A DNA stretch of 64,000 bases. It comes from Glaucostegus cemiculus (taxonomy: Eukaryota). The DNA lies in the NCBI GenBank assembly GCA_976551045.1, contig CDPCPM010000160.1:1054001-1118000 (forward strand), read 5' to 3'. Of the stretch, positions 2,065 through 62,390 are shown piece by piece; position 1 is the stretch's first letter; every line of letters begins with the position of its first letter. The notes under the pieces are model-generated. The model did no database searches and had not been told where the DNA came from. It saw nothing but the letters and a program-made list of their open reading frames with translations. The translations under genes and the position numbers were made by a program.

Positions 2065-2327
2065 CTAATACGAGAAAGTCTCGCGTTGTTAAACTTGATC
2101 GTTCGGTTACATTGTTAAATGCCTCACAAGTGTAACTGCCGGTGTCATTCATGGATAAGTCAACAAGGTCCAGGCATTGTCCACTTGTTTGAAGAGCTGA
2201 CCATTGAAGTACCACTGAAATGCAGGAGCGGGGTTCGAAACAGCTAAACACGAAAAAAATACATTTGACCCGGTACCGTGCGCGGCAAGATCTGGGCTGA
2301 CGGATATGGTTAAATTTTCAGGTCCAT
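2065..2327 (-). pseudogene. Gene A exon 4, IgC2 B-type with 1-bp deletion (frameshift near 2200, premature TGA 2151-2149)
   Basis: 263 nt versus 264 nt in paralog 29800-30063; AATGGT-CAGCTCTTCAAA versus AATGGTTCATCTCTTCAAA; the two halves of the Ig domain lie in different frames. Confidence 0.75.
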
Positions 2328-5300
2328 CTAAAACAAATGCACAGTCCGTTTACAGAATGTCACCCAGGATTCTAAACCATATTTCTGTCCCGTCACCAGG
2401 CAACTACATCCATCTCAATACAGAGAAGCCACTGGAAAACTCAGGCTACCCATTCCCAAATGATCACACCTCAGAACAGAATAAATGGGTATGGAAGCAG
2501 CTACATTCAGCAGACGATAGCCATTTGCACAAACTGCGATGCAATCTGCTCTGCCAGACAAGGTTAGAATTGTCTGGATATCATGCTTGCTGTGAAATCA
2601 GCAAGTTCTGGAGGACAGTGGCCGGTACAACCTTTATCCTGAGGGGGAAGCTGTCGTCATGGTGAAAGTTCACCTGGCAGAGAGGGGGATGTTTCTGCTC
2701 GGAAGGAAGGTGGGGCAACGTTTGCTTTTGCTGCAATCTCCCGACTCTCCAGTGAGGATTACAAACGACTCTTGTGAGTAGAGCATAAAATGGAAAATAG
2801 TGAGTTGTGATTTCCCTTCTTTTATTCCTGCACCATTCCTGGATTGCTCCCGACCTAACAAAGTAAATGAATTGACCACATAGCCTGCTTTGCATTTAAT
2901 TAATTTGTGTTTTGCAACATTGTTTGCAAAATTTTGTCTCTCAACGTCTATAATTCATTCCAAAATCAGTAAGGCCCAACATCAACAACTATGAAACTGC
3001 AGGAGAACATTGAAACCTGTCTAGCTCATTCATAACCTCCAGGAAAACAAGTCAACTGCAGGACCCAATCTGTATCCCTCCGTGACCACAACCGCCCCTC
3101 ACCTCCCATGTGGTTTACTGGAACTCTCTTCTGAATCTAGGCTGATTGCACAAGATAATGTTTTCGTCTTCATTTCTCCAGAGGAATCCGACATCACTGC
3201 TCGGGCCATCATTTCTTGTTCATCCTTAAGTTCTCTGAATCAAATGTCAGCAAAAAGCCACCAACATTGATGAGCCTGAAGCTGTGCTGAGAACAGACAT
3301 GTTAAGGAGGGCAAATTTCCTTCCCCGAGGACAATAGTGAACCCAATGTTTGTAACCACTTTCCTGCAAATGCCTGACCTCCACTATGGCCACTGTATGT
3401 TATTCCTGTCACGTCTGTGTGCAGTTAGCAAGTTTTGGATTTGCCCGGGTACTCATGTTTCCTCCCACCTTCAAAAAACGTTCATGTTGATTGATGAACT
3501 GGTCAGTGCGAATTGTGCACAGTGTGTATCTGAGTGAAGAATCTTGGGATTATACCACTCAGATACGCACTCAGAAAATTGTTGATCGGAATGTGAGGAG
3601 AATTAAAAGATGGGATTAATGTAGGGTTTGTGTAATGAAATAAATAAAAGAACGTTCAGGGAAATTCATCAAAATAAATTGAAAACATTGAATATAATTT
3701 CGAAACAAGTGACTTTGCCATTAAATCAGGATCCAAGGACCTGCATCTGGCGATACTATTTTGGCGCCTTACTTTGAATAGTGAACTTGACAATTGCATT
3801 TGATTTGTTTTAATTTGGGGGTGACACGTTCCTTGGAGTATGGCTTGTCCTCTGGTTGTCTGCCATGTTGAAGGTGGGTTTGAGGGCTGAAATGGAGATT
3901 GTTTCCATACCAATTTACGCACAGATATACTGGAGCAGCCAAAGGTAACTCACAGATATTAATCAAACGGAAAAACGTTCACCTGGACGGGGATCCATGG
4001 CCGTGAGGATGGATTTGATCAATACAGATATTAACATGGCTTGAAAAGGAGAAAACAGAATTTTATCCGTCTCCTCATCGGCCGATTGGTCAAAATATTT
4101 TCAGTCGAACCTCATGCCAGTGAAACCCAATACAATCGCGGAGATATGTTACAATATTTCACACACTGTTAGATCACACAGGCCACCACAGTGGCACTTA
4201 CAGCGAACGTTTAGTAGAAATGGATCGCTGGTGTTCGTATTCACCAAGTTGTACGCATCGCAGTTAAATTCCTCGTCCGATCTCAGCACCCCAGAGACAG
4301 TCAAGGTGCTGTTGTTGGAACTTAGGGTTATCCTACCGCCAGCGCTAACCGTCTTGTTGTTCTTAAACCACAGATACGAAACATCCGTTCCTTTTGCTTG
4401 GCACGTCAAACTAACTGTGTCATTGTATTCTACGGGTTTGGTATCATTGGATGTGATAACGGGCTTAGAAGCAGGTTCTGATAAAACAAAGTAGATCATG
4501 AAATACTTGTCACATATTGCGCAGGACGTATCCCCAAAAGATACACAGTATGTCACATGAAGCAACATATTGCTTATTCTGCAAATCATAGATGAAAACA
4601 GATATGTTGTAAATGCTCAATAGACCTGTCAGCGGCGGTGGGGAAGGAATTCTGGTTTAACATTCAGGTGGTCAATTAAGAACTGAACAGTGACGACCAC
4701 TTGGAGAAACATTGCACTTTCATAAACTTGGTGTGAAATAAAGCAAAGTTGCTTATTGCCGTATGCTTGAAAACAATGATAATTCACCATTAAAATAAGC
4801 GAGACGCAGGTGTGAGCAGACCAGAAAAGGGGCTCTGAAACACAATTACGTTACACCTTCAGTTAATAATATCGCAGACAAAACTAAAGTTCGCCACAGG
4901 GACGGCAGGACTGCTCACCATCCTCGATACATTGCGCATTCTAATCATCATTATTGTAGACATGGTACAGTATTCTGCTTTGCTCTCAGCTTTGAATATA
5001 TAATCCCCAGCAGAATATGACAGTTTCTACAGTTCACAATACTCAGGAAAGTAATCGCAGACATACAAACAAACCTGAGACCCACAGAGTCCGTGTCAAT
5101 CAAACCATCCAACATGAAGCCTCCTGGCCAGATTCATAATTTGCATTGTTTTCATTGTACATGTTGGTGCAATTGGACGATTGAATAGGAACAAGTAATG
5201 TTGTGGGTAATTCCATGGAGATCATGACTTAATACTTGGTGTTAAATGTCCTCAGCCATTTCTAACAATCAGTGAGCGAGGGAGTAAATGATCCGTCAAT

Positions 5301-8300: not shown

Positions 8301-10848
8301 GAGTAAGGTCAAAGGACATGTGAGAGGCATATTTTCTACCCACCTCTGTGTTGGGTACCCTGAATGCTGCGCCAGCAGTGGTGGTGCAGGCAAATACGAT
8401 AGAGGAGTTCAAGAGGCCCTTAGAAATACACATGAATGCACAGAAAACGGAGGGATATGGAAATTGTTGAGTTGGCCATGTGATTCAATCTGTTCGGTAC
8501 AACATTGAGGGCCGATGCGCCTGTTCCTGTGCTGTACTGTTTGTATGTTCTACACTGGAACTGTAAGATAGAGGAGAAATTGTGGCGAGAATCTCTGAAA
8601 TGAAAGGGAATTCCGTAAGCAATTCTGTGGAGAGAGAGAGAAACTGGATTTCGCCTGACATCGGAACTGACCTGTACTGCCACAAACAGGCAGGCTGTTT
8701 ATCCGAAATTGTTGAATACGTTATTGATTCCCCATACGGAAGTAAAGGGTGAAGAAACCGTGACTGACTGTAACTGTACATATAACTGATGGAAAACTCC
8801 CTCGGAAGCAAGAGCACAAAAGCTACTGACTCATGGTGAGTTGATAATTACTGTGCCCGGAACATTGGATATAGACCAGGTATGCTAGACAATTAAAGTG
8901 CTGGGTGCAATAATCAATGAGTGAGAAGCTTGCTCTAAACAATGAGGGTGATACCTGTCTTTGAATCTCTTGATTATAAACCAATTATGTTGGACAATAT
9001 GTACGATGTCTGTCTTTGGATCTCCGAGGCCTGACCGAAATTTGCGGCGCCGCATTCATTAAGTGTGCATGGCAATACCTGTATAAATTTCCGTCTGATC
9101 CTTTGTACGAAAGAGTCCCCGGGAAGCAATTCTCACGAGTGCTAAAGAGACCTCTCCTCAGCGGTGTACTTCTAATACACGCGTTTTATTGAATCAACCC
9201 GGTGACACTGTGTTACTTTGCCGCAGACAGAAGTGGGAACGAAATCGGGACGACACCCGGAGTCTGCAATGAGCAGAGGCGGCTAGTGAGGTTCCACGGA
9301 TGGATTGTACTGTTTTGTTAGGTATTGGGTGTGATTGGCAAAGACTCTCAGGTCGGCCCGTGGCGCTACTGCCACGGAGCTGTCAGGGAGAGCTCCCTAA
9401 AGCTCTGAGTGTCTTCTCTGATGCCTGTGTATTGGAGGAAGTCGGTCAACCCCTAGTTCCAGACGAACCTACTTCTCCCTGTTCGAAGAGTAGTTCAAGT
9501 CAGCTGACCTTGAACGTGGGGTTCAGCTGCACTGGATAAACTAACGAAGTAATGAGAAGCAGACACGATGAGATGCGGCAGAGATCAACTCAGCATCTCG
9601 CAATGATGCAGAGACCAGGACACGAGAGTGCCGGTGATCCGGACCTCCCGCGGGACAGCTTTGAAGGCTCGTGTGCGATTGTGTGTTTCAGGGGTGAGTT
9701 GGTCACAGACCTCAATGAGGGGCTAACTTTGAGAGCGTGACCCTCAAATTGCACTGTTTCCATGGCGATGAAAACCCGGAACATCACCGAGTCTCTGTCA
9801 ATTTTCAGCTCAATGAGATTGAAACACTCTCCTGGGACTAACATCGGCGATTCGCCCAAGGGACGTCATTTAGCCCACCGCTAAATTTCGCAGAAATGTA
9901 CCGGGTCTTCGGACCGAAATCACGTTGAAATGAGGGGAAGCAGTAGAGCGTAGGACCAAGTGTAACTGGCTGAGGTTCCATGTTGTTCTCATTTTAGATA
10001 TGGCGCAGTCACAGAGAACAGAGAGAGCAGCAGTAAGTGAAGAGGGATCGGCCGGGTTCTCACGGCGCGGGGTTCCGCACCCACAGGAACCCTCTCCCCG
10101 AATCCGACCGGCCGGCCGATACCTGTCCGGAAGGGACCCCAAACTGAATCGAATCCTATCCATTAGATGTAATTTCTCGTTCGGAAAGAGTGCATTCTCC
10201 AACAATTGAGTTGGGTAGAAAAGGTTAAATATATTCATTCACCACAGTAATAAAATGAAAATATAAGTCCGGAAATAAATGACTGAACAAGACCAACGTC
10301 TCACTCACCAAGGACCCGCAGAGTGATGGTCGCTGAAGCTGAAGAGCCGCTATTTGTAAACGTGGCCAGACGATACTCCCCGCTGTCCGAGGTGTTCACC
10401 GACTTCAGCAGGAGCGACCCGTTGGAGGTGAATACCTCAGCCCGTGAGTGGTACCCACTACCATAGAGCACACTTCCACCGGTCCACTGGGCGACTGTTT
10501 TCCCATTGAAAAGCCAGTTCCCACCGGTGATCTCGGCCGACGGCCGCACTGAAAAGAACGCATTTCCTCCGTCGGGCACATTGATCCGGCTCTGTTCTGC
10601 GTTGATGAGAAAAGCCTGAGACTCACCTGAGGAAGAGAAATTCGCATGCGGGTAAAGCAAAAGAAGCGGATGGACTCCAGAATCTGCACTTAGCTCAAAA
10701 ATTAGATCGTTTTTGGGAAGCTCATCTGCTTTTCCAAAACTACCCTCTGCTGTGGTGATTCCCTGTTAACGGTCCTTCCGAGAGAGTGACCCTCACCCGC
10801 AGATATGAAGAGACAAAGAGCGAGCGCGGTGAGCGGCAGCTCCGCCAT
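2065..10848 (-). CDS. Gene A (5' part, continues beyond window start): CEACAM-like, leader-N-IgC2A-IgC2B(frameshifted); possible pseudogene or truncated secreted form
   Basis: Exons 10797-10848, 10309-10626, 4202-4477, 2065-2327 with GT/AG boundaries, all phase 1; inverted paralog of gene B. Confidence 0.82.
4202..4477 (-). CDS. Gene A exon 3, IgC2 A-type
   Basis: EPASKPVITSNDTKPVEYNDTVSLTC...YLWF...EEFNCDAYN; 276 nt, T|GTAAGT donor. Confidence 0.88.
7550..8552 (+). mobile_element. Decayed CR1-clade LINE 3' fragments
   Basis: KFADDT-like segment, PHL.CCVQFWSP motif, 3' tail gggccga.g.gcctgttcctgtgctgtactgt...tatgttcta. Confidence 0.75.
8562..9255 (+). mobile_element. LTR-like element related to 13370-14162, in gene A intron 2
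   Basis: Shares CTGTATAAATTTC.GTCTG, GAGTGCTAAAG.GAC and the 3' end CACTGTGTT...GACAGAAG...ATCGGGA.GACA. 5' boundary (TGTAAG) uncertain; no matching TSD found. Confidence 0.55.
10309..10626 (-). CDS. Gene A exon 2, Cys-less IgV N domain
   Basis: 318 nt, GESQAFLINAEQSRINV...NW.FNG...NGSLLLKSVNTSDSGEY; ~72% aa identical to gene B N domain. Confidence 0.9.
10797..10848 (-). CDS. Gene A exon 1, signal peptide (MAELPLTALALCLFISA)
   Basis: cgggATGG context, hydrophobic leader, G|GTGAGG donor. Confidence 0.88.
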
Positions 10849-10960
10849 CCCGAGAGAGTAGCGTCTGTGTCTGCCACACTCTGAGACTGAGCCCGCTTCC
10901 TTGTCTCCGAGCCACATCACTGGAGTCAGTCGTCAGAAGCGGCACCGCTGATTGGACCGG
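10849..10960 (-). promoter_or_regulatory. Putative gene A proximal promoter/5'UTR with CCAAT box (ATTGG at 10951-10955), TGACTCC and AGGAAG
   Basis: Inverted homolog of 16590-16704; homology ends just upstream of the CCAAT box. Confidence 0.5.
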
Positions 10961-11099
10961 CTGCTGCCTGCCTGCGGCGTAGGCAGAGAAGGAAGTAAAG
11001 TAAAACTGAGAAGGACCACTCGGCCCCTCATACATATTCCATCATGCTGTACCATCACATGTGACCTTTTGTCAGCACCACTTCCCTGCACTAAACTCT

Positions 11100-11750
11100 G
11101 AAGGAGAGGAGAAGGGGTATCAACTTCTTTTTCCAGGGTGGAAATGTCTGATGCCAGAGGGCACGGGTTTTTAGAACATAGAATATAGAAAAGCTGCAGC
11201 ACAATTCAGCCCCTTCGGCCCACAAAGCTGTGCTGAACATATCCGTGCACTAGAAATTACTGGGCATTCCATAGACCTCTATTTTACTATGCTCCATGTA
11301 CCTATCTAACAGTCTCTTGAATGACCCTATCGTATTCGCCTCCACCACCCTTGCCTGCAGCCCATTCCACGCACTCACCACTCTCTGAGTAAAACATTTA
11401 CCCCACATATCTGCTCTATATCTACTCCCAAGCACCTTAAACCTATGTCCTCTTGTGTCCACAATTTCAGCCCTGGGGAAAAGCCTCTATCTACCCGATC
11501 AATACCTCTCTGTGGTGAAAGGGGGGACGTTTGAAGGAGACGTAGGAGGCAAGTGGGTGGGTGGGTGTCTGGAACGGGCTACGGGCGGTGCAAGCATTTG
11601 GGCAGGCAACTGAGCATTCAGAGAATGGAGGGATATGGACCATCCGCGTGCAGATGAGATTATTTTAAATTGACACCCTGGCAGGCACAAACAAGGTGGG
11701 CTGAAGGGCCTGGTCCTGTGCTGTACTGTTCTATGTCCTGTATTCTACGT
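11100..11750. mobile_element. CR1 3' fragments, a minus-strand copy (~11170-11500) nested in a plus-strand copy
   Basis: ORF 11250-11462 TRGHRFKV...FTQRVV.AWN.L...VVEA.TI.SFK.LLDRYM is the CR1 ORF2 C-terminus; tails on both strands. Confidence 0.75.
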
Positions 11751-16326: not shown

Positions 16327-16507
16327 GTGTGTGAGTGCCTGTGTGTGTGTGTCTGTCTGTCTGTCCGTCTCTGTCTGTATCTGAGCGGCTGTGTCTGTGT
16401 ATGTGTCTGTGTTTGTATGTTTGTGTCTGTTTATGTCTATCTGAGTTTTGCGTGTGTATGTGTGTGTGTGTGTCTGTCTGTCTGTGTTCATCTGTGTCAG
16501 TGTCTGG
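16327..16507. repeat. Compound (TG)n/(TGTC)n microsatellite immediately upstream of the gene B promoter
   Basis: Direct reading. Confidence 0.9.
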
Positions 16508-16589: not shown

Positions 16590-16704
16590 GACCGGACCAA
16601 TCAGCGCTGCAGCTTCTGACGACTGACTCCAGTGATTTGGCCCGGAGACCAGGAAGCGCGGCTCAGTCTCCGAGTGTAACAAACACAGGCGCTGCTCTCT
16701 CGGG
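16590..16704 (+). promoter_or_regulatory. Putative gene B proximal promoter/5'UTR with NF-Y CCAAT box (GACCAATCAG, CCAAT at 16597-16601), TGACTCC and ETS-like AGGAAG
   Basis: Motifs conserved in order and spacing upstream of gene A; no obvious TATA box. Confidence 0.5.
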
Positions 16705-16756
16705 ATGGAGGGGCTGCCGCTCACCGCGCTCGCTCTTTGTCTCTTCATACCTGCGG
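16705..16756 (+). CDS. Gene B exon 1, signal peptide (MEGLPLTALALCLFIPA)
   Basis: Kozak-like cgggATGG, hydrophobic leader, phase-1 donor G|GTGAGG; near-identical to gene A leader. Confidence 0.9.
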
Positions 16757-19700
16757 GTGAGGGTCACTCTGTCGGAGAGATAGTTAACAAGGAATCACAG
16801 CGGCGGAGGGTTGTGGAAAAGCGTATGAGCTTCCCAGAAACGATCTAATATTGAGCTAAGTGCAGATTCTGGAGTCTCTCCGCTTCTTTCGCTTTTCCCT
16901 CACACGAATTTTTCTTCCTCAGGTGAGTCACAGTTTACCATCCACGCAGAACACAGCCGGATCAATGTGACCGAAGGAGGAAATGCGTTCTTTTCAGTGC
17001 GGCCGACGGCCGAGTTCGCCGGTGGAAACTGGGGTTTCGATGGGAAAACAGTCGTCCAGTGGACGGATACAAAACCGTTCTATGGTAGTGGGTACCAATC
17101 ACGGGCTGAGCTGTTCACCTCCAACGGGTCGCTCCTACTGAAGATGGTGAACACCTTGGACAGCGGAGAGTACACTGTGACCATGTTTACACATAGCGGC
17201 TCTTTAGCTTCAGCGACCGTCACTCTGCGCATCACTGGTGAGTGAGACATTGGTCGTGTTTAATCATTTCTTTGTGACTGCTGCTCTCATTTTAAGTTGG
17301 TGGTGAATGAATCTAATTTAATCTTTCCTGTCCAACTCACTTGTCCTTACACTGTAAGTGTGCAACAGCTTACAGGCTGTTACATGGTCGCAGTGTAACT
17401 TGGTGAAGGAGGTATTTTTCCGGTCTGGAATTTGTAAATAAAGAGTAAGGCCGGTCTACCTTCGATTCATTTTCGGATATCTCTCGGGCAGGCATCTGCC
17501 GTCTGGTAAACTACAGACAGAGGATGCATGTGGGGTGGGACACGGTGCCGTGTTTCTCTGCCTCAGCCTCCCTTTCACCTCACTCTTCCATCGCATGACA
17601 ATGCTAGTGTTTACCACGCGATAAAAGGGAACTGTATTTTGATCCAGGAGTTAAATCAGTGTCCCCAGTTTTCCAGGGGGAGTCTGTGGAGAGAATATAA
17701 GCAGAAGGAGGGTTTCAGGTCGATGCCATTTCATCAGATAGTGAGTTGAGAAGTCAATGATATCCCATCGGACCAGGGGCTTTCCTCCTGCCTGTGATCG
17801 GCGCTCCCGGATCTTCTTGAAAGGAAAGATGTAGACCCTATTGCAACAAACGGCGGGACTTCCGGGCCTCATGACCTGCATCACCACGAGACAAGGTGGA
17901 TTTGGCCTAATGACTTGTCCTTGGGTCTAGAAACTATTATTTATCACAGAGGGGTTGATGCACACTGCTACTGGAGCAGGGTCAGGAGTTCCGAAAACTT
18001 AAAATGCTCTACCGGAAGTTTTACTCCAATGGCCTGTGCCTGATGCATGTACAAATGATATGTTAGCAGAGCACAATAGTTTTTGTTACAAGTTGTTTTA
18101 ATTCACAAAGTGTATTTCTTTTGCTTTGAACTAACGGCGTGGAATGGAGATTTCAGTGGCTCAATTGCCTTAGAAAGTTGTTGATAACATTGGAGCGCCG
18201 GACTGTTATGTGCTTTACATTTTAACTGTCTGTCTCTTATCTTACGCCTTCCCAATACATGTTCAGAATTCAGTGCAGATGACGCTATTCTTTAACAGAT
18301 CTACAGGTGGACTTCCTGATATTAAAGTGATTATTTGTATCCTTTGCACACCTCTTCAGTGTCGCTACTTTATCTACTTCACCTGACAAAACAAAGAGAG
18401 ATACTGGGGTGCATTAGCAATACAGACTGTGGTTTAAAAGTTGTCCATACATTTCATTGTTGATTTGGAGCTAAAGATTAGGGATCAAGCGTAGACCTTC
18501 ACCCTGCCCAGCCTTCTGAGTTATGTTTGTGGTAATAGATTTCCTTATTACGTGAGTTACTTTTAACACCAGCACATATCTCAATAGAGTCATATAGTCA
18601 TACAGCACGGAAACAGGCCCTTCGGCCCACTGCGTACTTGCCCGCCATCAAGCACCCATTTCCACGTAATGTATTATTCTCCACATTCCCATCAACTCCC
18701 TCCAGACTCGACTGCTCGCCTACACCCTAGGGACAAATTGCAGTGGCCATTTAGCGAACCATTTTTTTGCGGATATTGGAACCATTTTGTTCCAAGGCTG
18801 CACATAACCAAGCAATGAAGATGACCGTTTATTGATTAAGGACAGGGAATTCGTTCCAGTTCTTTTGTATAAACAGGCAGAAACTTGGGCTTTCCTCTTT
18901 CCTCCATGACGCGGTCCAGACGACAGATCTCCCTGCTGACAGGTCAAAGCATTCAGAAGACTTGAAACAATGAGACACCCCACAGAATACCTTTGTTTCA
19001 GTTTTCTCACGCTTGGTTTGTAAATGTAAAGAGTAAAGCAGGTTGGGACATAACCAGAATTGTACGGACACAATTATACATTAGTTATAGTTGGTGTCTC
19101 TGCTGTCATCTCTGCACATGTTACTTTGATTGATGAGGTTGTAAATGGGTAGGAGCCGGTTTCATGGTATTTAGAAAGTTTTTATCAAGGTCGCAATAGC
19201 AGGTGTGATCCCCTCCATTCCAACAAGTTTTCGCTGGCTGTCATATTGATGCTGAAAGCCAGTCAGATTCAGTGTGTCGTAACCCGTCCAATTACGTGGC
19301 AGCAACGGAAACGAACCTTGGCATTCCCTTTGGAAAGCAAATGTGCACCTGCTGTGTTAATATAATATTTAAGATCTGAACAACTGGTTGCGTTTAGATA
19401 GTTTCTATCATGTTCTAACTTATTCTCTGGTACCCATGGGAATTTTATGAAACAAAATTTGGAACCAGGATAATATGGGGCAGGCGGCAGACGGCTTGGG
19501 CCAAAGGGAGATTTGAATGGGAGGAAGATGGGGAGGGGATGGAGATGGAGGGAGAGTGTCAGTGTGGACGGGATTACAACAACAAACAGTTGACTGCTGC
19601 TTCCAGCAGAAATTAAAAACTAGATACATGAAAGGAAAGGAATAATCTCCGTTCGTGTGTTGGCGGTTGTAGATTAGAATCCGGAAGTGAAACATGTCCA

Positions 19701-40700: not shown

Positions 40701-43700
40701 TTTCTCAGCACCCAGAAACTCGGGCAGTACTAACTGAACATCAGGAAGCGCGGACGGTAATAAACCTGTGTGTGTAAGATTCCACAGCTGGAGATACGGA
40801 AAACAGCAATGCTTGAGCCAATTCTGACAATTTAAGTAACAGAATGTTCTGGAATGAAGTCAGAAAATTCAGTAGGTCCAGGGGTGCCCGCGGATAGAGA
40901 AACTGCGTCATTGTTTCAGGTTGCAGATACTGACCCGGGGCAGAGAGTTGGAGAAATCAGTAACGGCGGCCTCTAAATTGAAATGGACCGTCACTGGAGA
41001 CGGAGGGAAAATATACTGTGGGATTCCTCGACCAGTTCTTGCCGAGGGTCTTCCACTTGAATCGTTAACTCTTTCCCTCTGCACTGATGCTCCCTGACCG
41101 GTTGAGTGGTTCCAGGATTTCCGCTTTTCATTTAAGTTTTCCCCCAGCATCTACAGTTTTCTGTTTCCCATTTTCATCGAGATCAGATCAATAAACCGGT
41201 GAGGAAACGTTACCCTTTGTCTTTAAGCAAACTGCCGGACGCGGGGTCCGCGTGTTCATGTGCTTACGGACTCTGTCTCGGCAGGGCATAGTGAGAGGAC
41301 AGTTGGAAGTGCACATGAATGCAGTAATAGCGACTGTTTTCCATGAAGGCAAACCGGTTTTCTGGGAGGATGCCTTGGTGTGTGCAGAATGGATTCACTT
41401 TGGAGCTTCAGGGAAAAAAAGAGATATTGAGTAGGAAAGCCATGAAATTATGCTAATCATTCCTAATACCGTGCTTGGGGTGCAAGTATTGTCTGCTGTC
41501 CCGTGTGCCACACCAGGGAGGATGTGAATGTCTCAGAACCTGCAGAGGAGATCTGTTGGTGTGCACCCGGAGGTCAGGGATTTCAATTCCATGGATATAG
41601 GGGAGTAGCAGGGACTATTCCCCTCGGAACAAAGCAGACTGAGGGGCGACTTCTTAAGGAGTAGATGAAGCCGTCTGCTTTTGTTAAACAATAAATGCGG
41701 TCGAGTTGTGCGGAAGAGCTATATAGTGCATGACTTGGAACTCACTGCCCACAAGTGCTGTAGAGGAGCAGACAATTATTGATTCTGAAAGGAAATGGTG
41801 TCGGCCCTTGACTGAGATAATCTTGCAGCACACCGGATAGATCGGGACAATCTTACAGGTTGGCTCACTCTCTGGACAGCAAGCATGAACTGATGGGCCG
41901 ACTGGCACTTCCCCTCACGCACTGAGTTTATGACTTGTGCAGACGTCAGTGGGGACATCGAAATTACCCTAGAAACGGCAAACGTTGAAAATATGAAATA
42001 AAGTGCCGGAAAACTATTATCTCAGGAAGCACCTGCGGAAAGAGAAACGCTTAACTTCAACTGTTCCCCTCTCCACTGGTGTCCTTCCTAACAAGCTGGT
42101 ATTCTCCAATATTTCTGTTTTCATTTCCCCGGACTCTGTAGCTCCCAGGGTCCGCGGTTCACGGGACAACAAATTCAAATGTAAGCTTTAAAAAGTTAGG
42201 TGAAACTGATGAAAACATTCATCAGTCACGCAATCATTGACATTTCCGGTCCGTTTCTCTCTGTGCAAATTATGACAAACCTTCTCGGTGTTTTTGCAGA
42301 AGGTTCTGTAACTACGTCAGATGAACAGCTTTCCCCGCTGTGTTTTTCATTCTTTTCATTTATTGCGGAATTCTTGGGGGTCTCAGTTTACTCGAGCGGC
42401 TTTGAAATGTTAATTGGACAATATCTAAAAAGAAAGTGCATTCCCCTCGCTGCAATTCGAATTAGAGTTTGTTGTCCAATGGGATAAAGTGCCCATTCAA
42501 ATGGTCTTGAAGGTCACTCAGCTCAAGGGACATTCTGACCATCTGGGCGAAGTCCGGATCCAACAACGACTCGATAAGGAATGCCGCAAAATGCAGTAGA
42601 ACCTAATTTCTCCTGAAAGGTTATCAGGAAAATTGATGCATTTTGGGGGGAGATCCGTGCAATGGTTCTGATCCAGATGGATTTATGAAGAATTTTATTT
42701 CCAATTCAGATCTCGATTTTTCTGCTACTCCTGGGCATGAAGCATGACAGGAGGTTTCCCCTCGCGGTGGCCACGGAGTGCACGCCTCCACCGACACTGG
42801 AGACAGCAACAATGAGAAATCACTTCAGGCCCATTATTTCATCAACAAGTGTTGTTGTCTGTAATTCTTCACTTGTGTTGCGCAAAGGTATCGCACGGAC
42901 TCGGCAGGCATATGCTTCAGAAATCTTTATTGTAGCATGATATGATGGAGAGCCAGACTCCTAAAAGCAGAGTTCCAGCACGCCCAAGAAATTACAACCT
43001 TTATTTCTATTGCAGCAGTAGGTAACTACAAACACCCAAGAACAAAAAGCAGAAGTGAATAGCAGAAATAAATGGCGGAAGTGAGAAACCATGGTTTCAG
43101 CCTCAGTCTGGCACACATAAGGAACAAAGTATAATTAGATTGCCGCATCCTATGTGGCGGACACACAAAAAACATCACCATACATAGAGAGTTGTTTGGC
43201 TATCGGCAGAGCAAAGGTTAATGCTCTAGCTCACCATGTGCAGAAATTCGAGCACATTCTCAACTGTCTTTAACATTTCTCCCGCAACGTATTTTACTCT
43301 CCGCCCCATTTAAACCTTCCTCGACAATAAACCGTGCGACCCACACACAAGTGGGGTGGACGCTGGACAGCACACCCGTCTTCAGGAAGCAACGCCTAAC
43401 ATTTCTCAATTAACAGCAAGAGAAACGGAAAGACTGATTAGCTGATATCTGTTCCCAGAATTGTTTTGGGCAATTTGCAAACTATTATTTTCTGCCATTT
43501 ATTTTCTGATGTTTAAAGCTCAACAATGAGCTTGAGGTACCACAAACAATCAAACTTGCACGGATATTGACTCTGTTCACTTAGTTCCTTTCCAATGCAT
43601 CACGTCTCCTTATTTCCTCAATTCCATTTCCAGTTCGCAATGTTCACACTCCCGGAGGTTTGTCAGCTGCGGCGATAGCCGGGATTGTGATTGGCGTTGT

Positions 43701-46700
43701 TGCTGGAATTGCCATTGTGGGTGCATTCGCTGCCTGGTTTATCAAGAAATATGCAAGCAGGTATATATGTTTCATTCAATCTTTACCTTCATGTTGATTA
43801 TACTCCTTAAGACCTGATGTCCTGAAGTAACCAATGATTTGTTGCAGAATGATTTGCGTCTACTCTATCCTGTCAGCCGACGGTGTGCGTATTTCTCCCG
43901 AAGCTTCCATACTTGTTCGATTTACAGCTGCTCTTTAAATCTGCTCCGCTGTTTGACGGTTAGTCATTCAACCTCACTGCCGTGCAGTAGCAATCAAGCA
44001 ATCAAGCACATTCCACCATGACAGAAGGGGCATTCGGCAATTTCTTTCCCCATATATTTGTGAATGGACTGCTTCACACATACACGGCAGGGGGACAGCA
44101 GCAAACACAGGTTGCGGATCTGCACGTCAGCACTGACTGCTATTGTTCGACGCAGAGCCCTGTATTATTAATCCGACTTCTCTTGTTGAAATGCCACCAT
44201 CCGAACAAGAGAAACTGAAGCTGGAGAATATCACAGCCCCTCGAGCCAATTATGCTCTACAATTTGATTGTTGATTTGATCTTGGCCTCAGTTCAACATA
44301 TCCCCCATTCTCAAAAGCCCTTCACTCCGCATTGCACCAAGGATTTTTCTCTCTCGGCCGTGAGTATGTTCAATGCTTCCAAATCCACAGAATGACAGAA
44401 GCCAAAGATTCACCGCCATTCATTACTCCTCCACACCTTCTGATACAGGTGAAACCTTCATCTGAAACATGCCCCCATGTTCAGGAGAAGTTCACTGTGG
44501 GAAACAACAACTTACCCGTCCATACCTGCTCAAAAAGAGGTTTCAGGTTCAGAGACGGTGAGGGCTAACTTGAGCTGACTGAAGAAATCTGTCCAATGAC
44601 CATGAACAGCAAAATCATCCCATAGTCCAAGCTGATTCACACCTATCCATCTAGAAGGCGAGAGTGCGTCACTATCTTGTGTTATCTCCACGAATCTCAG
44701 AGACCATATGTGGAAAGATAAAAGTATCGACTTAATATTCTTTCTTCAGAAATATCGTTATCTGAACATAAATAGGCCGAATATTACAATGGGAATGTGA
44801 TTGTTTCTACTTGCGGTTTGATTGACACCTCTGTGCCCAGAGCAGATAATTTGATATCTCTGTTTCAACGTCCTGTTCCCTACTGTCAAGGTGCAACAAT
44901 AAATGTGATTTCTGTCGGAATTCCCGTTCACTGAATTAGTCTATTGACCAATCTTTTATTTTCAGAATTCATATTTTGATCCGTGTTTGCTTACTTAGGA
45001 TGAAAGTTGCGGAGATACATCTCGGGAGAGGAAAACCAGGAGTAAACAGTGAGTAGAAAGCGTTTTCACAGCTGTCAGTATAAGACGTTGGTTGGGCCAC
45101 ACTTGGAATATTGTGTGCTGTTCTGTTCACCGCAGTATGGAACGTATGTGGTCGTGTGGGGAAGAGATTCGCCAGGATGTGGCCTGGAATGGAGGACTTT
45201 AGTTCCAAGGGGAGGTTATACGCTGGGATAGTTGTCCGTGGAGTACAGGTGGCTGAAGCTAACCTTTCCAGTTTCACATAATCATGAGGTATATACTCAC
45301 TGACCTTTCCGAACGTAGATGAACGTGGATCAAGAGTAAATATGTGAGAAGGAAAATACTGAAAGGAGATAAGAGAGGCATGTTTGTCATACAAACTGTG
45401 GTGGGTGATTGGAACTGGCTGCCAGAGGAGGTGGTTGAGATAGGTATAATCACAGCGTTCACAAAGCATTTTCACAGGTGTACGTATAGGAAAGGTAAAG
45501 AGGGATAGGATCCAAATGCAGGAACTTAGGATGAAAGTGGATGCGCATTTCTGTCGGCATGGTTTCGTCGGGCCAAATGGTCTGTTTCGCGGCTGTAATA
45601 CTCCATCACTTCATGTGACAGGAAATACAAAGGATGTTGCTGCGCAGATCCGTGGACCTCACAGAGATGCTCGTATAATTCTTAGAGTCAAAAATGTGAA
45701 AGAGGCAGTCGGAATCATGCGGTGTCCTGGGATGGCTTAAACGGCCGCAGAGACGGTTATATTCCAGTGAGAAGAAGTGGCGTCAGGGGAGGTGACTGAG
45801 GGGGAATATTTCTTTATACATTTGCTACTGTCTGGAATGTTGCTCCATTTTTCAGTTCTGTCGCCCGTCAGTCTTCAAGGTTGCAAGACTCTGAAGCAGA
45901 ATTGAGTAGCGGTTGAGTTTGCCCGGTGAGGTCCATCTTCTGCATAACTAAAATGTACAATGCTTGACCTGGCTGTGCACTGAACTGGATCGGTGCCAAC
46001 TTCTCAAGGATAACAAGGATCTGCAAATCCTGCCACCGAGAAGGTGAAGAACAGGATCAGACCTTAAGTTGGTCAAATCTACAGGGCTTGTGCGAAAGGG
46101 GCGGAACTCATGAAATTGGTGTGATGCGCTTCCAATGTATCCAACAGGCGTTCCTCCGTAGGTGAAAACTACTATTGAATCTGTTTGCTCAGATAAATAA
46201 ACGTGTTGTATTCCCACAGACACCTTGGCTACGGATGTTGCAGACTCGGCACAGACGTATGAAAATATGCCAAGGAATCAAAAGGTTAGTACAAGTGCAT
46301 CATGATGACATTCTAATCAACATCATTTTTATATACATAACGTAGAATGTTGATGTAGAACATAAAAATAATTCCTCCTACAGCAGTTGTGGATTGGGGT
46401 CAGCAGACTGGGGTCCTTAGGAATATACATCTATAAAACTTGCATTCTTCCTTTTCATGTTCGAATTCACTATCCTACCTCAGAACAATCTTTAACACAC
46501 GTTTGGATAAGGAATACGCAGGAATAGGAAGCCTTAAGAGGGCTCTGGGCCAAATGCGGGCAGTCAGGACATGATCGTTGGCTCCTTGGTCAGGCTGGAC
46601 CAGTTGGGCCGAATGACCCGTCTCCATGCAGTAAGATTGTATCGCTCTGTGACTCTATGAATCGTTGGGAATGGTCATGATCAGGTGTAGCTCGCCAACT

Positions 46701-55473: not shown

Positions 55474-55545
55474 TCACTTGTCAAATGATGTTCCCACATA
55501 CCTCTTTAGGTCGCTGTAAATGGATCGATCTTCCAGCTTCAGTCC
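55474..55545 (-). CDS. Gene C last identified coding exon (GLKLEDRSIYSDLKRYVGTSFDK*); may instead splice at AG|GTATGT (55502/55501)
   Basis: Homolog of 47305-47355; in-frame TGA at 55476-55474; 3' end uncertain because of the internal donor-like site. Confidence 0.75.
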   Translation of the reverse strand, partial: GLKLEDRSIYSDLKRYVGTSFDK

Positions 55546-58500
55546 CTGTTAAACGTGAATAAATCTCCATGATTCACAACACATTGCAACAGAATCCGTC
55601 ATTGACAAAAAATAAGTTAAAGATCGTTAAAAAATACCTCGCCAGTACTTAACACTTGGACACTGAATGGAATTGAGGGACATGGGGACCAGGGCGGAAA
55701 GCGCATCTGAGACACACAGTTATGACATTAAATGGCGGAGGAGGCTCAAGGAGTCGAATTACTGACACTTCCTTGTGTTTCTTGATTGGTGAAATGGAAG
55801 AATTTCCTTCAAGAATGAATGAACAAAGAAGTTCTCTTACCATGAAAGTGGAGTTTCCATCTGGTGCATTCGTACTTATATTCTGGATAGAGAAAATATA
55901 TATATATTTGGCAATAACACAAAAAATTCAATGATCTCTCCCCACACAAGTACTCCGAGATCAATGTTCACATTCTTTACTCAATAATGCACTGTTCGCT
56001 TGTTCTGAACTCCGCCTGATTTTAACACAGAGTGATAGCGAAATATTGTCTCTGAGATGGTGAAAACCTATCAAGGGAATTACACCATTCGTGAGGCTCT
56101 AGTACTTCATATGAACACAAGAAATAAGGGCAGGAGTAGGCCATTTGGCCCATCGACCCTGCTCCGCCAATCAATAACGTTGTGACTTATCCGGCCGTGG
56201 ACTCAGCTCCACCCACCTACCTGTCCCCCATAACCCTGAATTCCCCCCAGCATACACAAATCTACCGAACTGCGTCTCACAGATGTTTGAAGAGACAGCC
56301 TCTACTGCTTCCCTTGGCAGATAATTATACAGATTCAGTACTTTCTGGGAAAAACAGTCTTCCCTCATCTCCATCCTAAATATATTCCACGAATATTGAG
56401 GTTATGCGTTATCGCCAATTCCATGCACACTTTTATTACAGATAAGTCTTTACTTCGACACCTTATTGAACACCTTCTGGGAATTCAAGTACACAACATC
56501 CATCTGTCCCCTATATCCGCTACGCTCATTATATCCTCAAAGAACTCCAGGAAGTTTGTCAAACAGGACATTCACTTCCTGAAACCATGCTAATGCAAAC
56601 ACTCTTATTCATATGTCTCGTTGTTTCTTCACTGGAGTTAGCTTCAAGTATTTTCCTGACTACAGGTGTCAAGCCAACTGCCATATAGTTGCCAGCCGTT
56701 TGCTCACATACCTTTTAAACAATGCGCCGAGACCTGCCCAAAGTCCAGAAATTTTGGTAAATTCTCACAACCCCGTCTACTATCACTTCCGCAATTTCTT
56801 TCAGTTCCCCGGGATACATCCCATCAGGACCATAGTTCCTATCTGCCTTTCTGACCACGAGTTTACTTATCACTAACTCTTTACTGACAGTGAATGTATC
56901 GAGGCCCACCCCTCCCATCGCATCCATAACAGCATTCTTTGCCATGTTAGACGTCTCCTCCAGCGTGACGACAGACCTGAAATAGCGATCCTAGGTCTCG
57001 GCCATTTCCACATTAGCCAAAATTAATTCCCCCTTCTGTCGTTTCGAGGAACCAACGTTCATTTTAGTCACCATTTACCGCTTTGTATAAATACAAAACC
57101 ATTTACAATCTGTACCTGTATTTTGTGCCAGTTTTCTTTCATAATCTATCTTCGTTTCCTTATTGCTTGCTCGGTGGTTCTTTGCGACTTTTTAAAGATT
57201 ACGCAATCTTCCAGTATTCCACTGCAGTTGGCGACTCTGTCTGCGTGAGCATTTAGCTAATGGCTTCCTTTATTTGCTCTGTTATCCAAGGCTGTCTCTC
57301 CGCACGCTCATTGTCGTTGCCTTTAACTGCAATATCGACTCCCTCGACCAACTAGATGTGCCCAGTCCATGTGGAAGTTAAGTCCTCGAGGACAAATGCC
57401 GTTGCATGCTAACATGCATCAGATATTTCTTGGTTTATTACCTATGCCACTGTCATCTTATCATTCCGTGGCCTACAGACAACTCCCACCAGTGCTTTTT
57501 TCCGGGAACCAGTCCTAACCTCCACCCAGATGAACACAATAATCTAATCATTTGATTTCATACCGTTTCTGACGATCGGACTGACCTCATGCTTAATTGA
57601 GAGCGCTACCCTACCTTCCTAAACTTTCTGCCTATCCGGCCGTATTATATGAGTGTCTTGCATATTTAATCCCCAAACATCTCTACCCAACCACTACATT
57701 TCTGTAATGGCAATTAAATCAAACCCCTTTCTACTGGTTTGTGCCACTTCACTGACCTAGGTTCGAATACTGTGGGCATTGAGATAAAGTGACTTTTAGA
57801 TTCTAACAAGCTTGGTGCCCTTTGCATTTGAATTTTCTCTATTCCACGTTTACTTTTCGAACATTTGCTTTACTCTCTGCATTGCTTCCCTCTGTCGTTC
57901 TGCATTGATTGCCATCCACCTGACATATAACTTCAAACCCTCCGCAACATCGCGAGCAAGGACATTAACCCCAGTCCTGGCAAGATGAAGATCATTCGGT
58001 TTATTCAGGTCCCACTTTCCAACAAACCGGTTCTAATGCCTCAGGTAATCTAAAACCCTCCCCACTGCACAACTGATCAAGCCACATATTTATCTAAAAG
58101 GTGCTGAATGGCCTACCCTGATCAGTCACTGGCACTGATAGAAATCCTGAGGTTATTACCTTCGAGGTCCTACTTTTTAACATAACTCCTTGCTCGCTAA
58201 ATTCGGGTTTTAAGAAATAATCTCGGTTTATCCCTATATTGTTGGGAACTATGTGCACCACGACGGTGATATAGTGGTTGTTTCTGACGACCAACTCGTC
58301 TTCGTAACCATTCATCATAACGCACGAATTTAGATCTGTCCGTGGAAGTAGGGGCTTGAATTTTAAGTAATATCTAAAACATGTATGACAAATTGTGGCC
58401 TAACGTGATGGCAATCATGTACTGTTGCTTGTAATAAACACTGAGCAGGCCTACAACTGATCTCAGAATGAAATCTGCCACCTTTGTCCAGCCTTTCCTA

Positions 58501-61500
58501 CCCTTGTAACTCCAGCTCCACCCATATTATTGCCATTCGGATGACTCTACAGATCAAGATCAAGGTCAGTCACCGGCCGACAACAATTGCGGGCGTTGTC
58601 ATGAACGCTCCTCCCCCGTAAACGGAGAAGTTTAAGAAGTCCGACATAGGACTCGGGAAAGGAAAGCTAATGCATGCAGTTCAGAGCTGCCAAATACAAA
58701 ACTACTCTCATGGCTGCGATGCAACATCGCCTCTCCTTAAAACAACACCTGAAGCCACGAATATAATGCCAGGTACCAACCTGTGAATTCCTTGGGAAAT
58801 TTTCATAGGTCTGCAATGCGTTCACGGTGTTTGTGGCCAAGGTGCCTATGGAAATAAAACACATGCAGTCACAGCAGCGAAAAGCATCAGGAGAAGTTAT
58901 TCAGCACAGAGGAAATCTATCCGGCTCCATTCATGGGACCAGCTATCAAATTAGCTTCATGACCTCTCCTGGCTATGAGCAAATGAACGTTCGTGCAGTA
59001 ACTGAAATCATATTATGATGAAAATAAAGAGAGATTCGCTTTGCATAAACTCGTATTCACCTTCCACACTCACATTCTAGTATTGAGTTGAAAAGTTCAA
59101 CTTATTTAACCGGACAAAACGTTTAACATAACAGCGGAATTAGTGACCGTTCATTAAGATGCAAATATCCAGCTTCAGTACCGGGTGACACACAGTTCAT
59201 CAGATCAATTCCCAGAGCCAGAGGAAATGTTAATCTTTCCATGGGTGCAGTAACAGAGCGGATGAATAGGAGTTCACTCACTCTTTCCTCCTGAAGTGAT
59301 GCTTGTGCCATATTTTGCCTGGGGCGGACCTTTCACCCTGAATAAACATGAAGAGGTCAAAGGTGAATTCTGCAGGAAGTTATTTCCTTGGACTGACACA
59401 CCGAGTGAGAACTGTTTCTGAAATCCCATTTACTGGCAGTCGAGTTATTCCTTGCAGCTGTTCCAGCTATCCGATTTACCCACTTTACCCACTTCTCAAT
59501 TGTAACTCGAGTATGGATTAATAAACTCATGATTTGCAGACTGAGGTTAGTTGGTAAAAGAGAGTCATTAATACCCAGGAAAGACACATCAGTGCAGGCG
59601 CCAGATGTCCTCCACTGCACGGCTCTATTTCTATTCCTCAGACTTCTACATATGTCCCCACAATATATATATTTATCCAGCTTCCTCAACTACCACATTG
59701 GACGCACTTTCAAAGCATCTGCAGGGAGATCGTTAAATCTTTCAACAATGCGCCTTGCAGAAACAAAAGCATTTCTTCGACAAGTACCCTTTTGCGTTTA
59801 CTTTCTAATTGTGACTTTAATCCTCGACTCTTTTGCCAAGGTCACCAACCTCCCACTCTCCACATTATCCACCTTCCACATCAGTTTTTGTGCTTCGCTC
59901 AAGTCTCCACTCAGCCTATCCTTCTCCAAGGAAAACAGTCCCAGTCTCTCCAACCTATCCCTGATCCCAGGAACCACTTTCCTCTATCTGTTCTGGGCTC
60001 TCGCTGTTGTTCGCAGCTGCTTACTGTAATGTGGTGACCAGAAATAAAAATTAAATCATGTATCTTACAATACGGACAAGTTTTCTTTTCTGGTTTATAT
60101 ATCTTCCTTCCTATAATACTCCTTGCGTATGTGGATAAAGACAGGAATTTCGTCTGCCTTCTTAACGAATATAAGAGGGAAACCACTGCATATTACGCCT
60201 CGGTGGTGTCTAACCTGACCCAACAACATCGAATTCTATAACTTCAGGTAACCACTCCCCTCTGTCAATCTTTAACCTTCTGCGACCGGCCCCTCCAGTC
60301 CATCTATTTCCCCTCCTCCTCCCTCTCAATCTGCCCTTCACCAACGTATTCCTCCTTCGGTTTTCCCTCCCTAACACCTTCCCTTTAATCTGTGGACCAC
60401 TGCCCTCTCCTATCAGATGACATCTGGTACAGTCCTTTCCCACTTCCATCTAACACCTCCCAGTTCCTGAAACCCATTCTCATTCTACCCTGCCCTCACC
60501 TGCCAATCATCTACTCTCTTGGATAGACCTATCACCAGCCAGCTCTTGCTCAAACATTTCCCCAACATATTTATACTGGCTACGTCCCCGCTTTCCTTCC
60601 AGGCCTCTGGAAAGGTCACGACCTGAAACGTCAACACATCGCCAGCCTGCTCATGCCCCACCACCTCCCCCATCTTTTAATACTGCCTACCTCCCCACTT
60701 TCTTTCGCGTCCTCTGGAAAGGTCTCGACCCGAAAAGTCATCTCTACGTTTCCGTCCACAGATGCTGCCTCCCCGTTGAGTTCCCCCAGCTACTTTGTCT
60801 GTAACTTCCTCCATTAACCTCCAACATCGGAAATTCGCGTTCATGGTGTCAACGTCCCTTTGGAGCCACAGGCGTCATTTTATTTTATCTGTTAATACTG
60901 TTATGTGGTGGGACACGTTGTTCAGGCTGTAATTTCGATACAAATTCTGCCTGAATACTCTTCCCATAATTTAAGGTAGAAACAATATTCGGAAGAAAAC
61001 ACATTTACCTGCCAGTTTTCCGTGCGATGAACCAACCACTGATTCCGCTGATCGAACCCACACCAAGTAGACCAAGAACGATGCCCGCGATGGCGCCAGG
61101 GCCGAGGGTACAACTGGCATCTGTTAAAGGTGCTACCACACACAAGAAAGATCTATTTTATATCCGCAAAACAAATTCCTTACAGTAACAACGTGCATTT
61201 ACATGGCGAACAACTCTTTAATATTAATTTATCATTGTATATTTGAAATCGTATTTTGTGTATCAGAATGAAAGTGCAGGGAAGCTGGAGATACTATAGG
61301 AGACCAACACGCTGAACTGTGCTCGGAGTAAACCTAAGCCTCTCCTCTGTGATCAGTAGAAACAGCAAAGGCTCAGTCAGCAGAACATCCAACAGTCTTT
61401 GTTCTGATGGCTGAGCTCACCCTCTCCTGTATCATTGCAACAAGCATAGCCCTCCCATATTGTCACTTGTCTGGTTTGACCTGTCCTTGAAAGTCCACCA

Positions 61501-62390
61501 ACGTTTTCGTCAAACAGGAATATAACGTTCTCTGGTCTGGCCGTAAGTGGAGAGATTAAATCAATGTGGTTCTGGCGAATGGTGAAGACTTTTTACATTC
61601 TCTCCACAACATTCATCGTTCTTGATAACATTAAGAAGTCTCATAGCTGATCTTTCGATCTGATTATCCATTTGGAAATGCGACTGGAGGACGAGAGTGG
61701 GATGTTCGGGAAACAAAATGTCTGGGTCTTTAATCAGCGGGTGTGAATAGAACAAGCACAGAAACATTCACTCACCTTGTGTGGTAACCTCAACAGTAAG
61801 CTTACTACTCCTATTGGTTACGCGGTTAATAACCAGACATGTATAATTCCCACTGTTAACCGAGCTTCCTGACACAAGGGTGAGCTCCTGCCCTGTCTGG
61901 AGAGTAATGTTCCCGTTGTACCATGCGTATTCACCACAGGGGACTGACAGAGCAAAGCAAGTTAATGTCAGATTTGTTCCAAGATTTGCAACAACTGCAG
62001 ACTGCGGCAGAATTCTGACCTTCTCAGGACCATCTACAAAACGAGAATACGTGTCGATTCTGTGTTCAGTAATATCAGATACAAACTAACGTTGTTGTTT
62101 GCCTGCATACTCACAGTAAACATTCAAGTAGGTCTCTCCAGCGCCACTGTTGAAACTGTTGCTGACGACGCACTTGTATGTCCCTGCATCAATTCTGTTC
62201 ACACTAATTATGGTTAGTTCAGAATTGTCGGCGGGTGTGAATATTCTACTATTTTCCTGTATGGGTTGGTTATTTTTCAACCATGTCCGTTTCTGAACAG
62301 TGCCCGAAGCGTGACAGGTCAGTGCTACGGCATCGACGTTTTCCACTGGAGTGGAATCGTTGTTGAAGACAGTCACGTCAGACACGGCCT
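55474..62390 (-). CDS. Gene C (3' part, 5' end beyond window end): CEACAM-like, ...IgC2A-IgC2B-TM-cytoplasmic tail with first ITAM Tyr replaced by Phe
   Basis: Exons 62115-62390, 61776-62033, 61009-61120, 59282-59337, 58781-58845, 55841-55882, 55474-55545; GT/AG boundaries, open frame, phases match gene B exon for exon. Confidence 0.85.
55841..55882 (-). CDS. Gene C cytoplasmic exon 3 (NISTNAPDGNSTFM)
   Basis: ttttctctatccag acceptor, ATG|GTAAGA donor; AACTCCACTTTCATG versus gene B AACTCCACTTACATG. Confidence 0.83.
56110..58260 (-). mobile_element. Decayed CR1-clade LINE
   Basis: GPDGMYP..LKEIAEVI.D (ORF 56715-56945) and FSQKVLNL.N.LPREAVEA (ORF 56171-56374). Confidence 0.75.
58781..58845 (-). 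CDS. Gene C cytoplasmic exon 2 (TLATNTVNALQTYENFPRNSQ)
   Basis: 65 nt, phase 1 to 0, clear homolog of 46220-46284. Confidence 0.82.
59282..59337 (-). CDS. Gene C cytoplasmic exon 1 (RVKGPPQAKYGTSITSGGK)
   Basis: tttattcag acceptor, 56 nt, phase 2 to 1, A|GTGAGT donor. Confidence 0.72.
60190..60800 (+). mobile_element. Penelope-like element 3' remnant with duplicated terminal segment
   Basis: caacatcgaattctataacttcaggtaa resembles the NIEF.NFR* end I recall from vertebrate Penelope ORFs; pyrimidine-rich UTR; two copies of cctctggaaaggtc.cgacc.gaaa. Confidence 0.5.
61009..61120 (-). CDS. Gene C transmembrane exon
   Basis: DASCTLGPGAIAGIVLGLLGVGSISGISGWFIARKTG(R); PGAIAGIV and KTGR match CEACAM1-type TM exons; phase 1 to 2. 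Confidence 0.88.
61776..62033 (-). CDS. Gene C IgC2 B-type exon (homolog of gene B B4)
   Basis: After an 81-nt intron: YGPEKVRILPQ...LTLTCFALSVPCGEYAWY...SGNYTCLVIN; 258 nt, G|GTGAGT donor. Confidence 0.88.
62115..62390 (-). CDS. Gene C IgC2 A-type exon (homolog of gene B A4)
   Basis: EAVSDVTV...VALTCHASG...TWLKNNQPIQEN...DAGTYKCVVSN; 276 nt. Confidence 0.9.

Follow-up and report, generated by a model that had tools for sequence, protein, structure and literature searches.

A candidate paired CEACAM-like receptor system within a gene-cassette array of the cartilaginous fish Glaucostegus cemiculus

Does a set of neighbouring, inverted CEACAM-like genes in a cartilaginous fish encode paired immune receptors, in which similar ligand-binding domains are carried on tails of opposite type? 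The question is raised by a stretch of 64,000 nucleotides from the ray Glaucostegus cemiculus (assembly GCA_976551045.1, contig CDPCPM010000160.1, positions 1,054,001 to 1,118,000 of the forward strand), here called the window, which carries three such genes, A, B and C. Paired CEACAMs have been described in mammals, frogs and some reptiles, and in the papers found, cartilaginous fish were previously represented only by expressed sequence tags (ESTs) from skate. In the accessible parts of those papers (PMC3628338, PMC4079198), and we draw on all cited papers to that extent, the ESTs document that cartilaginous fish possess a CEACAM homolog and come without locus, tail types or pairing. In Xenopus, paired Ceacam receptors include a group 1 whose N-terminal (N) domains are closest to those of fish (PMC5112662). 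No publication describing a CEACAM locus of a shark or ray, or pairing in these animals, was found, although such genes may be contained in the supplements of PMC3628338, PMC5112662 and PMC13278318. A preliminary description of the window saw a three-gene cluster with contrasting tails and took it for an independent, lineage-specific paired system.

The answer that we favour, with a probability of roughly 0.55, is that the window belongs to an array of CEACAM-like genes with tails of the ITAM type (immunoreceptor tyrosine-based activation motif), which would act as activating decoys for a single gene, Z, with a tail of the ITSM type (immunoreceptor tyrosine-based switch motif), the N exons being kept alike by recombination. 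The sequences support a paired system at the level of the cluster, because tails group by type and N domains by lineage, exchange between opposite-strand genes is limited to a leader-plus-N module, and the ratio of nonsynonymous to synonymous substitution rates (dN/dS) is 1.58 on the ligand face. Pairing as first proposed is therefore retained within the cluster but moved within it: A, B and C are all of ITAM type, and the inhibitory-type gene Z lies 0.9 Mb away. Similar ligand domains are found on tails of opposite type and are likely kept alike by recombination, as in known paired receptors; of four published indicators of such receptors, the array shows decoy candidates, inverted arrangement and conversion, and the remaining one partly.

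Positions in kb refer to the contig (C160 of genome G000), of which the window is a slice; DNA was retrieved for 224-2,086 kb and annotated for 424-2,086 kb. A genome search with an N exon returned 51 matches, every one on C160 between 484 and 2,004 kb, and after annotation there were 52 N-exon loci across ~1.5 Mb, 42 of them in frame. From ~800 kb onward the repeat unit is ~70 kb long and consists of one minus- and one plus-strand gene arranged head-to-head, with ATGs spaced 3.8-7.3 kb apart in the 14 pairs tested. The window covers one and a half units, and A and C occupy the equivalent slot in consecutive cassettes; what had been read as a three-gene cluster is part of this larger array. 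Blocks of 96-99.8% identity pair many-to-many across the array, and because of this its growth fits repeated unequal crossing-over of ~70-kb cassettes, with many copies decaying. A sawfish protein model (P0007) contains an antisense N-exon stretch (residues 224-281) sandwiched by two N domains; this suggests a model fused over inverted genes, hence alternating orientation in sawfish too.

Gene order on the strands is A (-), B (+) and C (-), and the window holds the 5' part of A, the whole of B and the 3' part of C. The ATGs of A (10848) and B (16705) are 5,857 bp apart, the stops of B (47355) and C (55474) ~8.1 kb, every immunoglobulin (Ig) exon of the three genes is phase 1-1 with AG/GT borders, and the N domains share 72% (A/B), 64% (B/C) and 67% (A/C) amino-acid identity. 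In all these respects (strands, both spacings, common exon phases, differing N domains) the preliminary description was reproduced. Gene B is a single 15-exon open reading frame (ORF) of 949 aa with leader, N, eight constant-type Ig (IgC) domains in four A/B pairs, transmembrane (TM) exon and four tail exons; its N domain is without cysteine, its TM helix uncharged, and its tail introns are in phases 2, 1, 0, 0. The features of the window and its flanks are as follows.

10797..10848, minus strand: gene A leader exon, 52 nt, ATG at 10848
10309..10626, minus strand: gene A N exon, cysteine-free V-set, 83% aa identity to Z and 72% to B
4202..4477, minus strand: gene A IgC exon A2
2065..2327, minus strand: gene A IgC exon B2, 263 nt, frameshift near 2201
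12.7 kb to the left of the window, minus strand: remainder of gene A (A3, B3, A4, B4, TM, four tail exons, full ITAM)
10202..10960, minus strand: gene A copy of a 760-bp tract, -112 to +646 from the ATG
16592..17344, plus strand: gene B copy of the 760-bp tract
16705..16756, plus strand: gene B leader exon
16923..17237, plus strand: gene B N exon
22222-22497, 23129-23392, 27725-28000, 29800-30063, plus strand: gene B IgC exons 1-4 of eight
31790-32065, 33607-33867, 39639-39914, 40002-40259, plus strand: gene B IgC exons 5-8 of eight
43634..43760, plus strand: gene B TM exon, no charged residue in the helix
44999-45048, 46220-46284 (YEN, a YxN motif), 46954-46992, 47305-47355, plus strand: gene B tail exons
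61776..62390, minus strand: gene C IgC exons A4 (62115-62390) and B4 (61776-62033)
61009..61120, minus strand: gene C TM exon
59282-59337, 58781-58845, 55841-55882 (Tyr-to-Phe at 55845), 55474-55545, minus strand: gene C tail exons
Up to 27 kb to the right of the window, minus strand: gene C leader, N, A2, B2 (with stop), A3, B3

Only B is free of lesions among the three. Exon B2 of gene A (263 nt) has lost 1 nt near 2201, giving a frameshift and early stop that the preliminary description overlooked. Four other copies share it, and short-read contigs from both runs span it without a gap; hence we take the frameshift as real and sequencing error as ruled out. The short-read evidence comprises two DNA runs of one public sample and excludes uncovered parts, including both N exons at 95% likeness. 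Exon B2 of gene C, outside the window, holds an in-frame stop. Neither A nor C would act as a receptor unless one dead, phase-symmetric Ig exon were skipped. Separately, directly behind the AG of the acceptor, the N exons of A (10626) and B (16923) open with GTGAGT, which matches a donor motif perfectly and could permit re-splicing or skipping of the N exon.

Extension beyond both ends of the window, as had been proposed, supplied the tail of A, which carries a complete ITAM, and the N domain of C, related to that of B at 64%. The tails of B and A carry YM/GL-x7-YSDL, the first YxxL being cut by a phase-0 intron (slash), and B has YEN in tail exon 2; both have four tail exons and a YxxL-x6-8-YxxL motif with its first half split by a phase-0 intron. 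Gene C has equivalent exons with FM replacing YM, that is, an ITAM-type tail without the first tyrosine. Contrasting tails, as first described, are thus not present: A, B and C share the ITAM-type four-exon tail, and the contrast seen in C is a Tyr-to-Phe change. The spacing YxxL-x7-YxxL is retained in 34/38 tails of the B/C type, although 4 of those 34 lie in a frameshifted exon. Phe at the first ITAM tyrosine is found in C alone among the cassette copies (a decayed remnant at 657 kb also has it), and at window position 55845 the short-read contigs, which may derive from paralogs and drop rare variants, carry the Tyr base only. The acidic residue expected three places before the first tyrosine of a canonical ITAM is not present in B (ENSTY) or A (DGNSTY), and for this reason we class both as ITAM-like, as with eutherian ITAM-like CEACAMs. 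Since A, B and C are all of activating type, a receptor pair is not found among them and the partner has to be sought elsewhere.

The partner candidate is the last gene of the array:

G000:C160:2,003,699-2,062,761: gene Z, 15 canonical exons, intact ORF of 971 aa, 0.9 Mb from the window

Its tail exons measure 53, 57, 44 and 114 nt in phases 2, 1, 1, 0 and carry the motifs TEYAAV, IIYTNP and TDYATL, of which TEYAAV matches the published ITSM definition TxYxx(V/I) and TDYATL is one residue off. The last exon has a single match genome-wide, whereas the IgC domains are 80-99% like those of B. From these motifs the tail is likely to be inhibitory, and Z is CEACAM1-like in role only, not a CEACAM1 ortholog. 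Counterparts of the Z-type tail are found in P0014 of sawfish (89%), P0017 of stingray (65%) and P0005 of horn shark (46%). We count at least one ITSM-type gene in the cluster; the divergent genes at 484-606 kb lie outside the tail count and may include a second inhibitory gene.

At ~403-413 kb of C160 (L178:9215-9598, L179:886-1224) there is a further divergent gene with V and IgC exons, the IgC exon matching CEA best. Its TM exon may lie near 407 kb, and near 413 kb there is a possible last exon that ends in IVYSAIAPS. At this other end of the cluster it may represent a second CEACAM-like gene of the inhibitory kind.

How are similar N domains kept on tails of different type? In quick trees that take in sharks and rays, the TM-plus-tail regions separate an ITSM clade from an ITAM clade across species, with the four ITSM tails as one clade at support 100. 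The N domains of the same four ITSM genes behave differently: in topology tests on 27/91 N domains, based on a quick tree, their monophyly was rejected with an approximately unbiased test value (p-AU) of 1.7e-54, as were an N clade of Z with its sawfish counterpart (p 2.1e-4) and a clade of seven minus-slot genes (1.2e-9). Hence N domains group by lineage and tails by type. The N domain of Z shares 83% identity with A and with the gene at 1002 kb and 100% with the ITAM gene at 1642 kb, the last within a 22.7-kb duplicated block at 98.3% and not through exon-limited conversion. In sawfish, the ITSM gene has an N domain 90% like that of the ITAM gene P0013, whereas the IgC domains of these two share only 37-67%. 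In each of the 11 partner pairs examined, the sequence that can be aligned between genes on opposite strands is limited to ~-112 to +646 from the ATG; two of the pairs have one extra short match elsewhere. This 760-bp inverted tract, holding leader plus N, is more alike between A and Z (88.7%) than between A and its neighbour B (84.8%). Among 9 non-redundant of 14 pairs, head-to-head partners share 86.2% N-exon identity against 80.8% for non-partners (0/20,000 permutations), and 13 tail-to-tail neighbours share 82.0%; no partner excess is seen in A4, B4, TM or tail exons, which sort by slot. The tract, the partner excess and the tree tests bear out the earlier proposal that inverted genes exchange sequence.

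Comparison of 15 N exons gives a dN/dS of 1.58 (codon bootstrap 1.06-2.45) at residues 29-58 and 85-105 and of 0.56 (0.35-0.92) at the remaining residues, estimates that derive from non-independent pairs and can be biased by recombination. The residue split was fixed before structure prediction, and in the predicted model strands C, C', C'', F and G fall within the first set. Amino-acid changes accumulate on this C-C'-C''-F-G ligand face.

Several observations weigh against decoys paired with Z. Besides the possible bias in dN/dS, several IgC exons have values near or above 1 on few changes. No strict ITIM (immunoreceptor tyrosine-based inhibition motif), (I/L/V/S)xYxx(L/V), is present in the tail of Z, which has four exons and not three, and ITSMs are also able to activate. 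The acidic residue of the ITAM sits at -4 or -5 and not at the canonical -3. The head-to-head partner is the top-ranked N in only 6/14 pairs, with A/B ranking fourth, the identity of Z and the 1642-kb gene reflects block duplication, and some of the blocks of 96-99.8% identity may be assembly duplicates. The horn shark ITSM gene, in a small sample, has its closest N (66%) in another species, and no pairing is seen there. None of the 17 minus-slot cassette genes is free of lesions. One or more dead exons are present in each of the ITAM genes whose N domain comes closest to that of Z (1642, 1002 and 997 kb, and A), and the N domain of intact B shares only 67% with that of Z. Since the nearest ITAM genes need exon skipping and B is so distant, strict pairing is weakened, which leaves room for neutral decay and for self-ligand adhesion.

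Neutral birth and death would explain the locus as runaway cassette duplication in which most copies die and N likeness comes from unselected conversion between nearby inverted copies. The missing intact minus-slot genes, the restriction of lesion-free genes to five plus-slot ITAM genes (932 kb, B, 1438, 1503 and 1580 kb) and Z, the many-to-many blocks and a dN/dS of 1.00 over the whole N exon all fit this account. Against it, dN/dS splits by face within N, and exchange has sharp limits on both sides of the leader-plus-N module. Sawfish, moreover, retains the ITSM tail and both types of ITAM tail (82-94%), and in sawfish and stingray, too, N domains group by lineage. We consider neutral turnover as the whole explanation unlikely.

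A second alternative is that the N domains serve homophilic or heterophilic adhesion or self-recognition in epithelia or reproductive tissue, with tails tuning the signal and no microbe involved. CEACAM1 works through homo- and heterotypic contacts, the ITAM genes have up to eight IgC domains compared with 0-2 in tetrapod decoys, and the 38 N-glycan sequons of B resemble CEA-type adhesion proteins. However, this account predicts a conserved N domain, yet N is the least conserved part of Z relative to sawfish P0014 (63%, against 77-91% for the common IgC domains), and we regard own-ligand recognition as decidedly improbable.

The pair originally suggested, B activating and C inhibitory through its remaining SIYSDL, is ruled out for practical purposes and given very little weight: C is an inverted neighbour whose ITAM lacks its first tyrosine and whose SIYSDL conforms to an ITIM, but intact ITAMs likewise finish in SxYxxL, the Phe is peculiar to this copy and absent from the short-read contigs, exon B2 of C is stopped, and B/C N identity (64% aa, 80.6% nt) is not above background.

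Family assignment draws on the A N exon, on 33 other N exons in alignment, and on the sawfish relative P0012. All matches to the A N exon (29/29) were to proteins of sharks or rays, a sawfish protein being closest (76%), and P0012 matched CEA (9e-93), CEACAM1 (2e-48) and CEACAM6 (2e-35) ahead of titin (4e-24); the preliminary assignment to cartilaginous-fish CEACAM-like genes is supported by these results. The B and Z models have the CEACAM layout of a leader, an N-terminal variable-type (IgV-like) domain and then A/B-type IgC domains on phase-1 exons. CEACAM N domains have no intradomain disulfide, and 34/42 in-frame N exons are cysteine-free, with two or more cysteines in 1/42. The N domain on its own is less distinctive: the A N exon matched characterised proteins weakly, a profile search gave CEACAM1 as its top five matches (37.6 bits) with CD48 close behind (36.0), and the predicted structure is a V-set fold (pLDDT 95) for which Foldseek returned PD-L1, TIGIT and CEA intermixed, a generic V-set result. 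Against CEACAM7 the model scored a Z value of 13.5 (rmsd 2.3, 100 aligned residues), the best structure match being 15.4. Among the genes that serve as synteny markers for CEACAMs (LIPE, TMEM145, XRCC1, BCL3), matches to LIPE, XRCC1 and TMEM145/GPR180 lie on contigs other than C160 in this 1,511-contig assembly, and in a Pfam scan of 150/579 non-repeat flank ORFs the sole matches were two Ig exons and part of a retroelement. The RefSeq models named 'CEACAM1/3/5/6-like' from sawfish, stingrays, devil rays and sharks are direct relatives of the ray genes (P0012 of plus-slot, P0013 of minus-slot and P0014 of Z type), although their automatic names ignore tail type and label ITSM genes CEACAM5-like or PSG5.

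Comparison with known systems places the locus among them and sets it apart. As in Xenopus (PMC5112662), there is one continuous cluster with few inhibitory and several ITAM genes in opposite orientation, conversion around the N exon, and amino-acid change on the CC'C''FG face. In the accessible part of that account, however, frog genes form same-direction subclusters with conversion of the N exon only, whereas in the ray each gene lies on the strand opposite to its neighbour, within an amplified cassette of two genes, and the tract adds 112 nt upstream, the leader and intron 1. Shared with mammalian CEACAM1/CEACAM3 and opossum ITAM CEACAMs (PMC2832619) are the four-exon ITAM tail with its first YxxL split by a phase-0 intron, the seven-residue spacing, typically one inhibitory gene and, as in opossum, YxN in tail exon 2. 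Exon 7 of CEACAM1 has 53 nt (PMC11646291), equal to the first tail exon of Z, whereas Z differs from mammalian CEACAM1, as far as these sources describe it, in having four tail exons instead of three, an extra 57-nt exon with an ITSM and no strict ITIM. Tetrapod decoys, in what is accessible of PMC13278318, have 0-2 IgC domains, in contrast to the ray candidates with N and up to eight, as long as the inhibitory receptor.

An independent, lineage-specific origin is not supported. Because both tail types are common to sharks and rays and the exon layouts repeat those of mammalian CEACAM tails, the paired system looks ancient rather than independently invented, and only the array and its N-domain repertoire are lineage-specific. 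In the mechanism suggested by mammalian CEACAM1/CEACAM3, for which we infer the sign of the signal, the ligands and the cell types of Z and the ITAM genes, microbes would bind the Z N domain to attach and to damp immune cells via SHP phosphatases. B-like receptors would show variant N domains, and binding would recruit Src/Syk kinases via the ITAM and Grb2 via YxN, leading to uptake; the ITAM genes would be decoys borrowing and varying the Z N domain, as in human CEACAM1/CEACAM3 and as proposed for frogs. A broader proposal, which we put forward tentatively and think could well fail, is that the pairing of inhibitory with activating CEACAMs dates back as far as the jawed vertebrates and that the ray array shuffles a fixed 760-bp promoter-leader-N module among about forty genes, giving a full-length decoy repertoire against microbes. 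It is well supported that a known system extends here to a new lineage, with an unusual cassette array and long candidate decoys. A full locus with both tail types brings the system to the oldest living jawed-vertebrate lineage, its exon layouts make the question of convergence or inheritance testable, and Z and B are concrete proteins with which to look for microbial ligands, the first for any innate receptor of a shark or ray.

Elsewhere in the array, the genes at 1149, 1297, 1642 and 1784 kb have three additional, partly dead IgC exons upstream of the ITAM tail, and a 3-kb stretch past their exon B4 is 95% like the same stretch in Z; they are likely chimeric, joining a Z-type ectodomain to the 3' end of an ITAM gene. 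At 672-724 kb (L042-L047) leader-plus-N units follow each other in a run, four of them spaced 1.5 kb and several with damaged leaders, and no IgC exon was found for them; they are candidates for secreted single-domain forms or remnants.

Outside Glaucostegus, NLRC3-like RefSeq models of Mobula birostris and M. hypostoma (P0023, P0025, P0030, P0031, P0033, P0034, P0037, P0038) start with a leaderless CEACAM-type N domain of the family described here, 56-57% identical to that of A and present in 8/11 cluster members, six of them on long NACHT-LRR models. No obvious published account was found of a CEACAM-type N domain on NLRC3-like proteins, and no NACHT match was found in 424-2,086 kb of C160. 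The Mobula loci lie on at least two chromosomes, and one isoform (P0035) omits the N domain in frame; the models possibly represent NOD-like receptors (NLRs) into which a CEACAM domain has been integrated, or they are chimeric.

Immediately to the left of the CEACAM cluster, 231-445 kb of C160 (L161-L180, L158-L160) holds ~17 long single-exon ORFs of one family, which by eye look like seven-transmembrane receptors.

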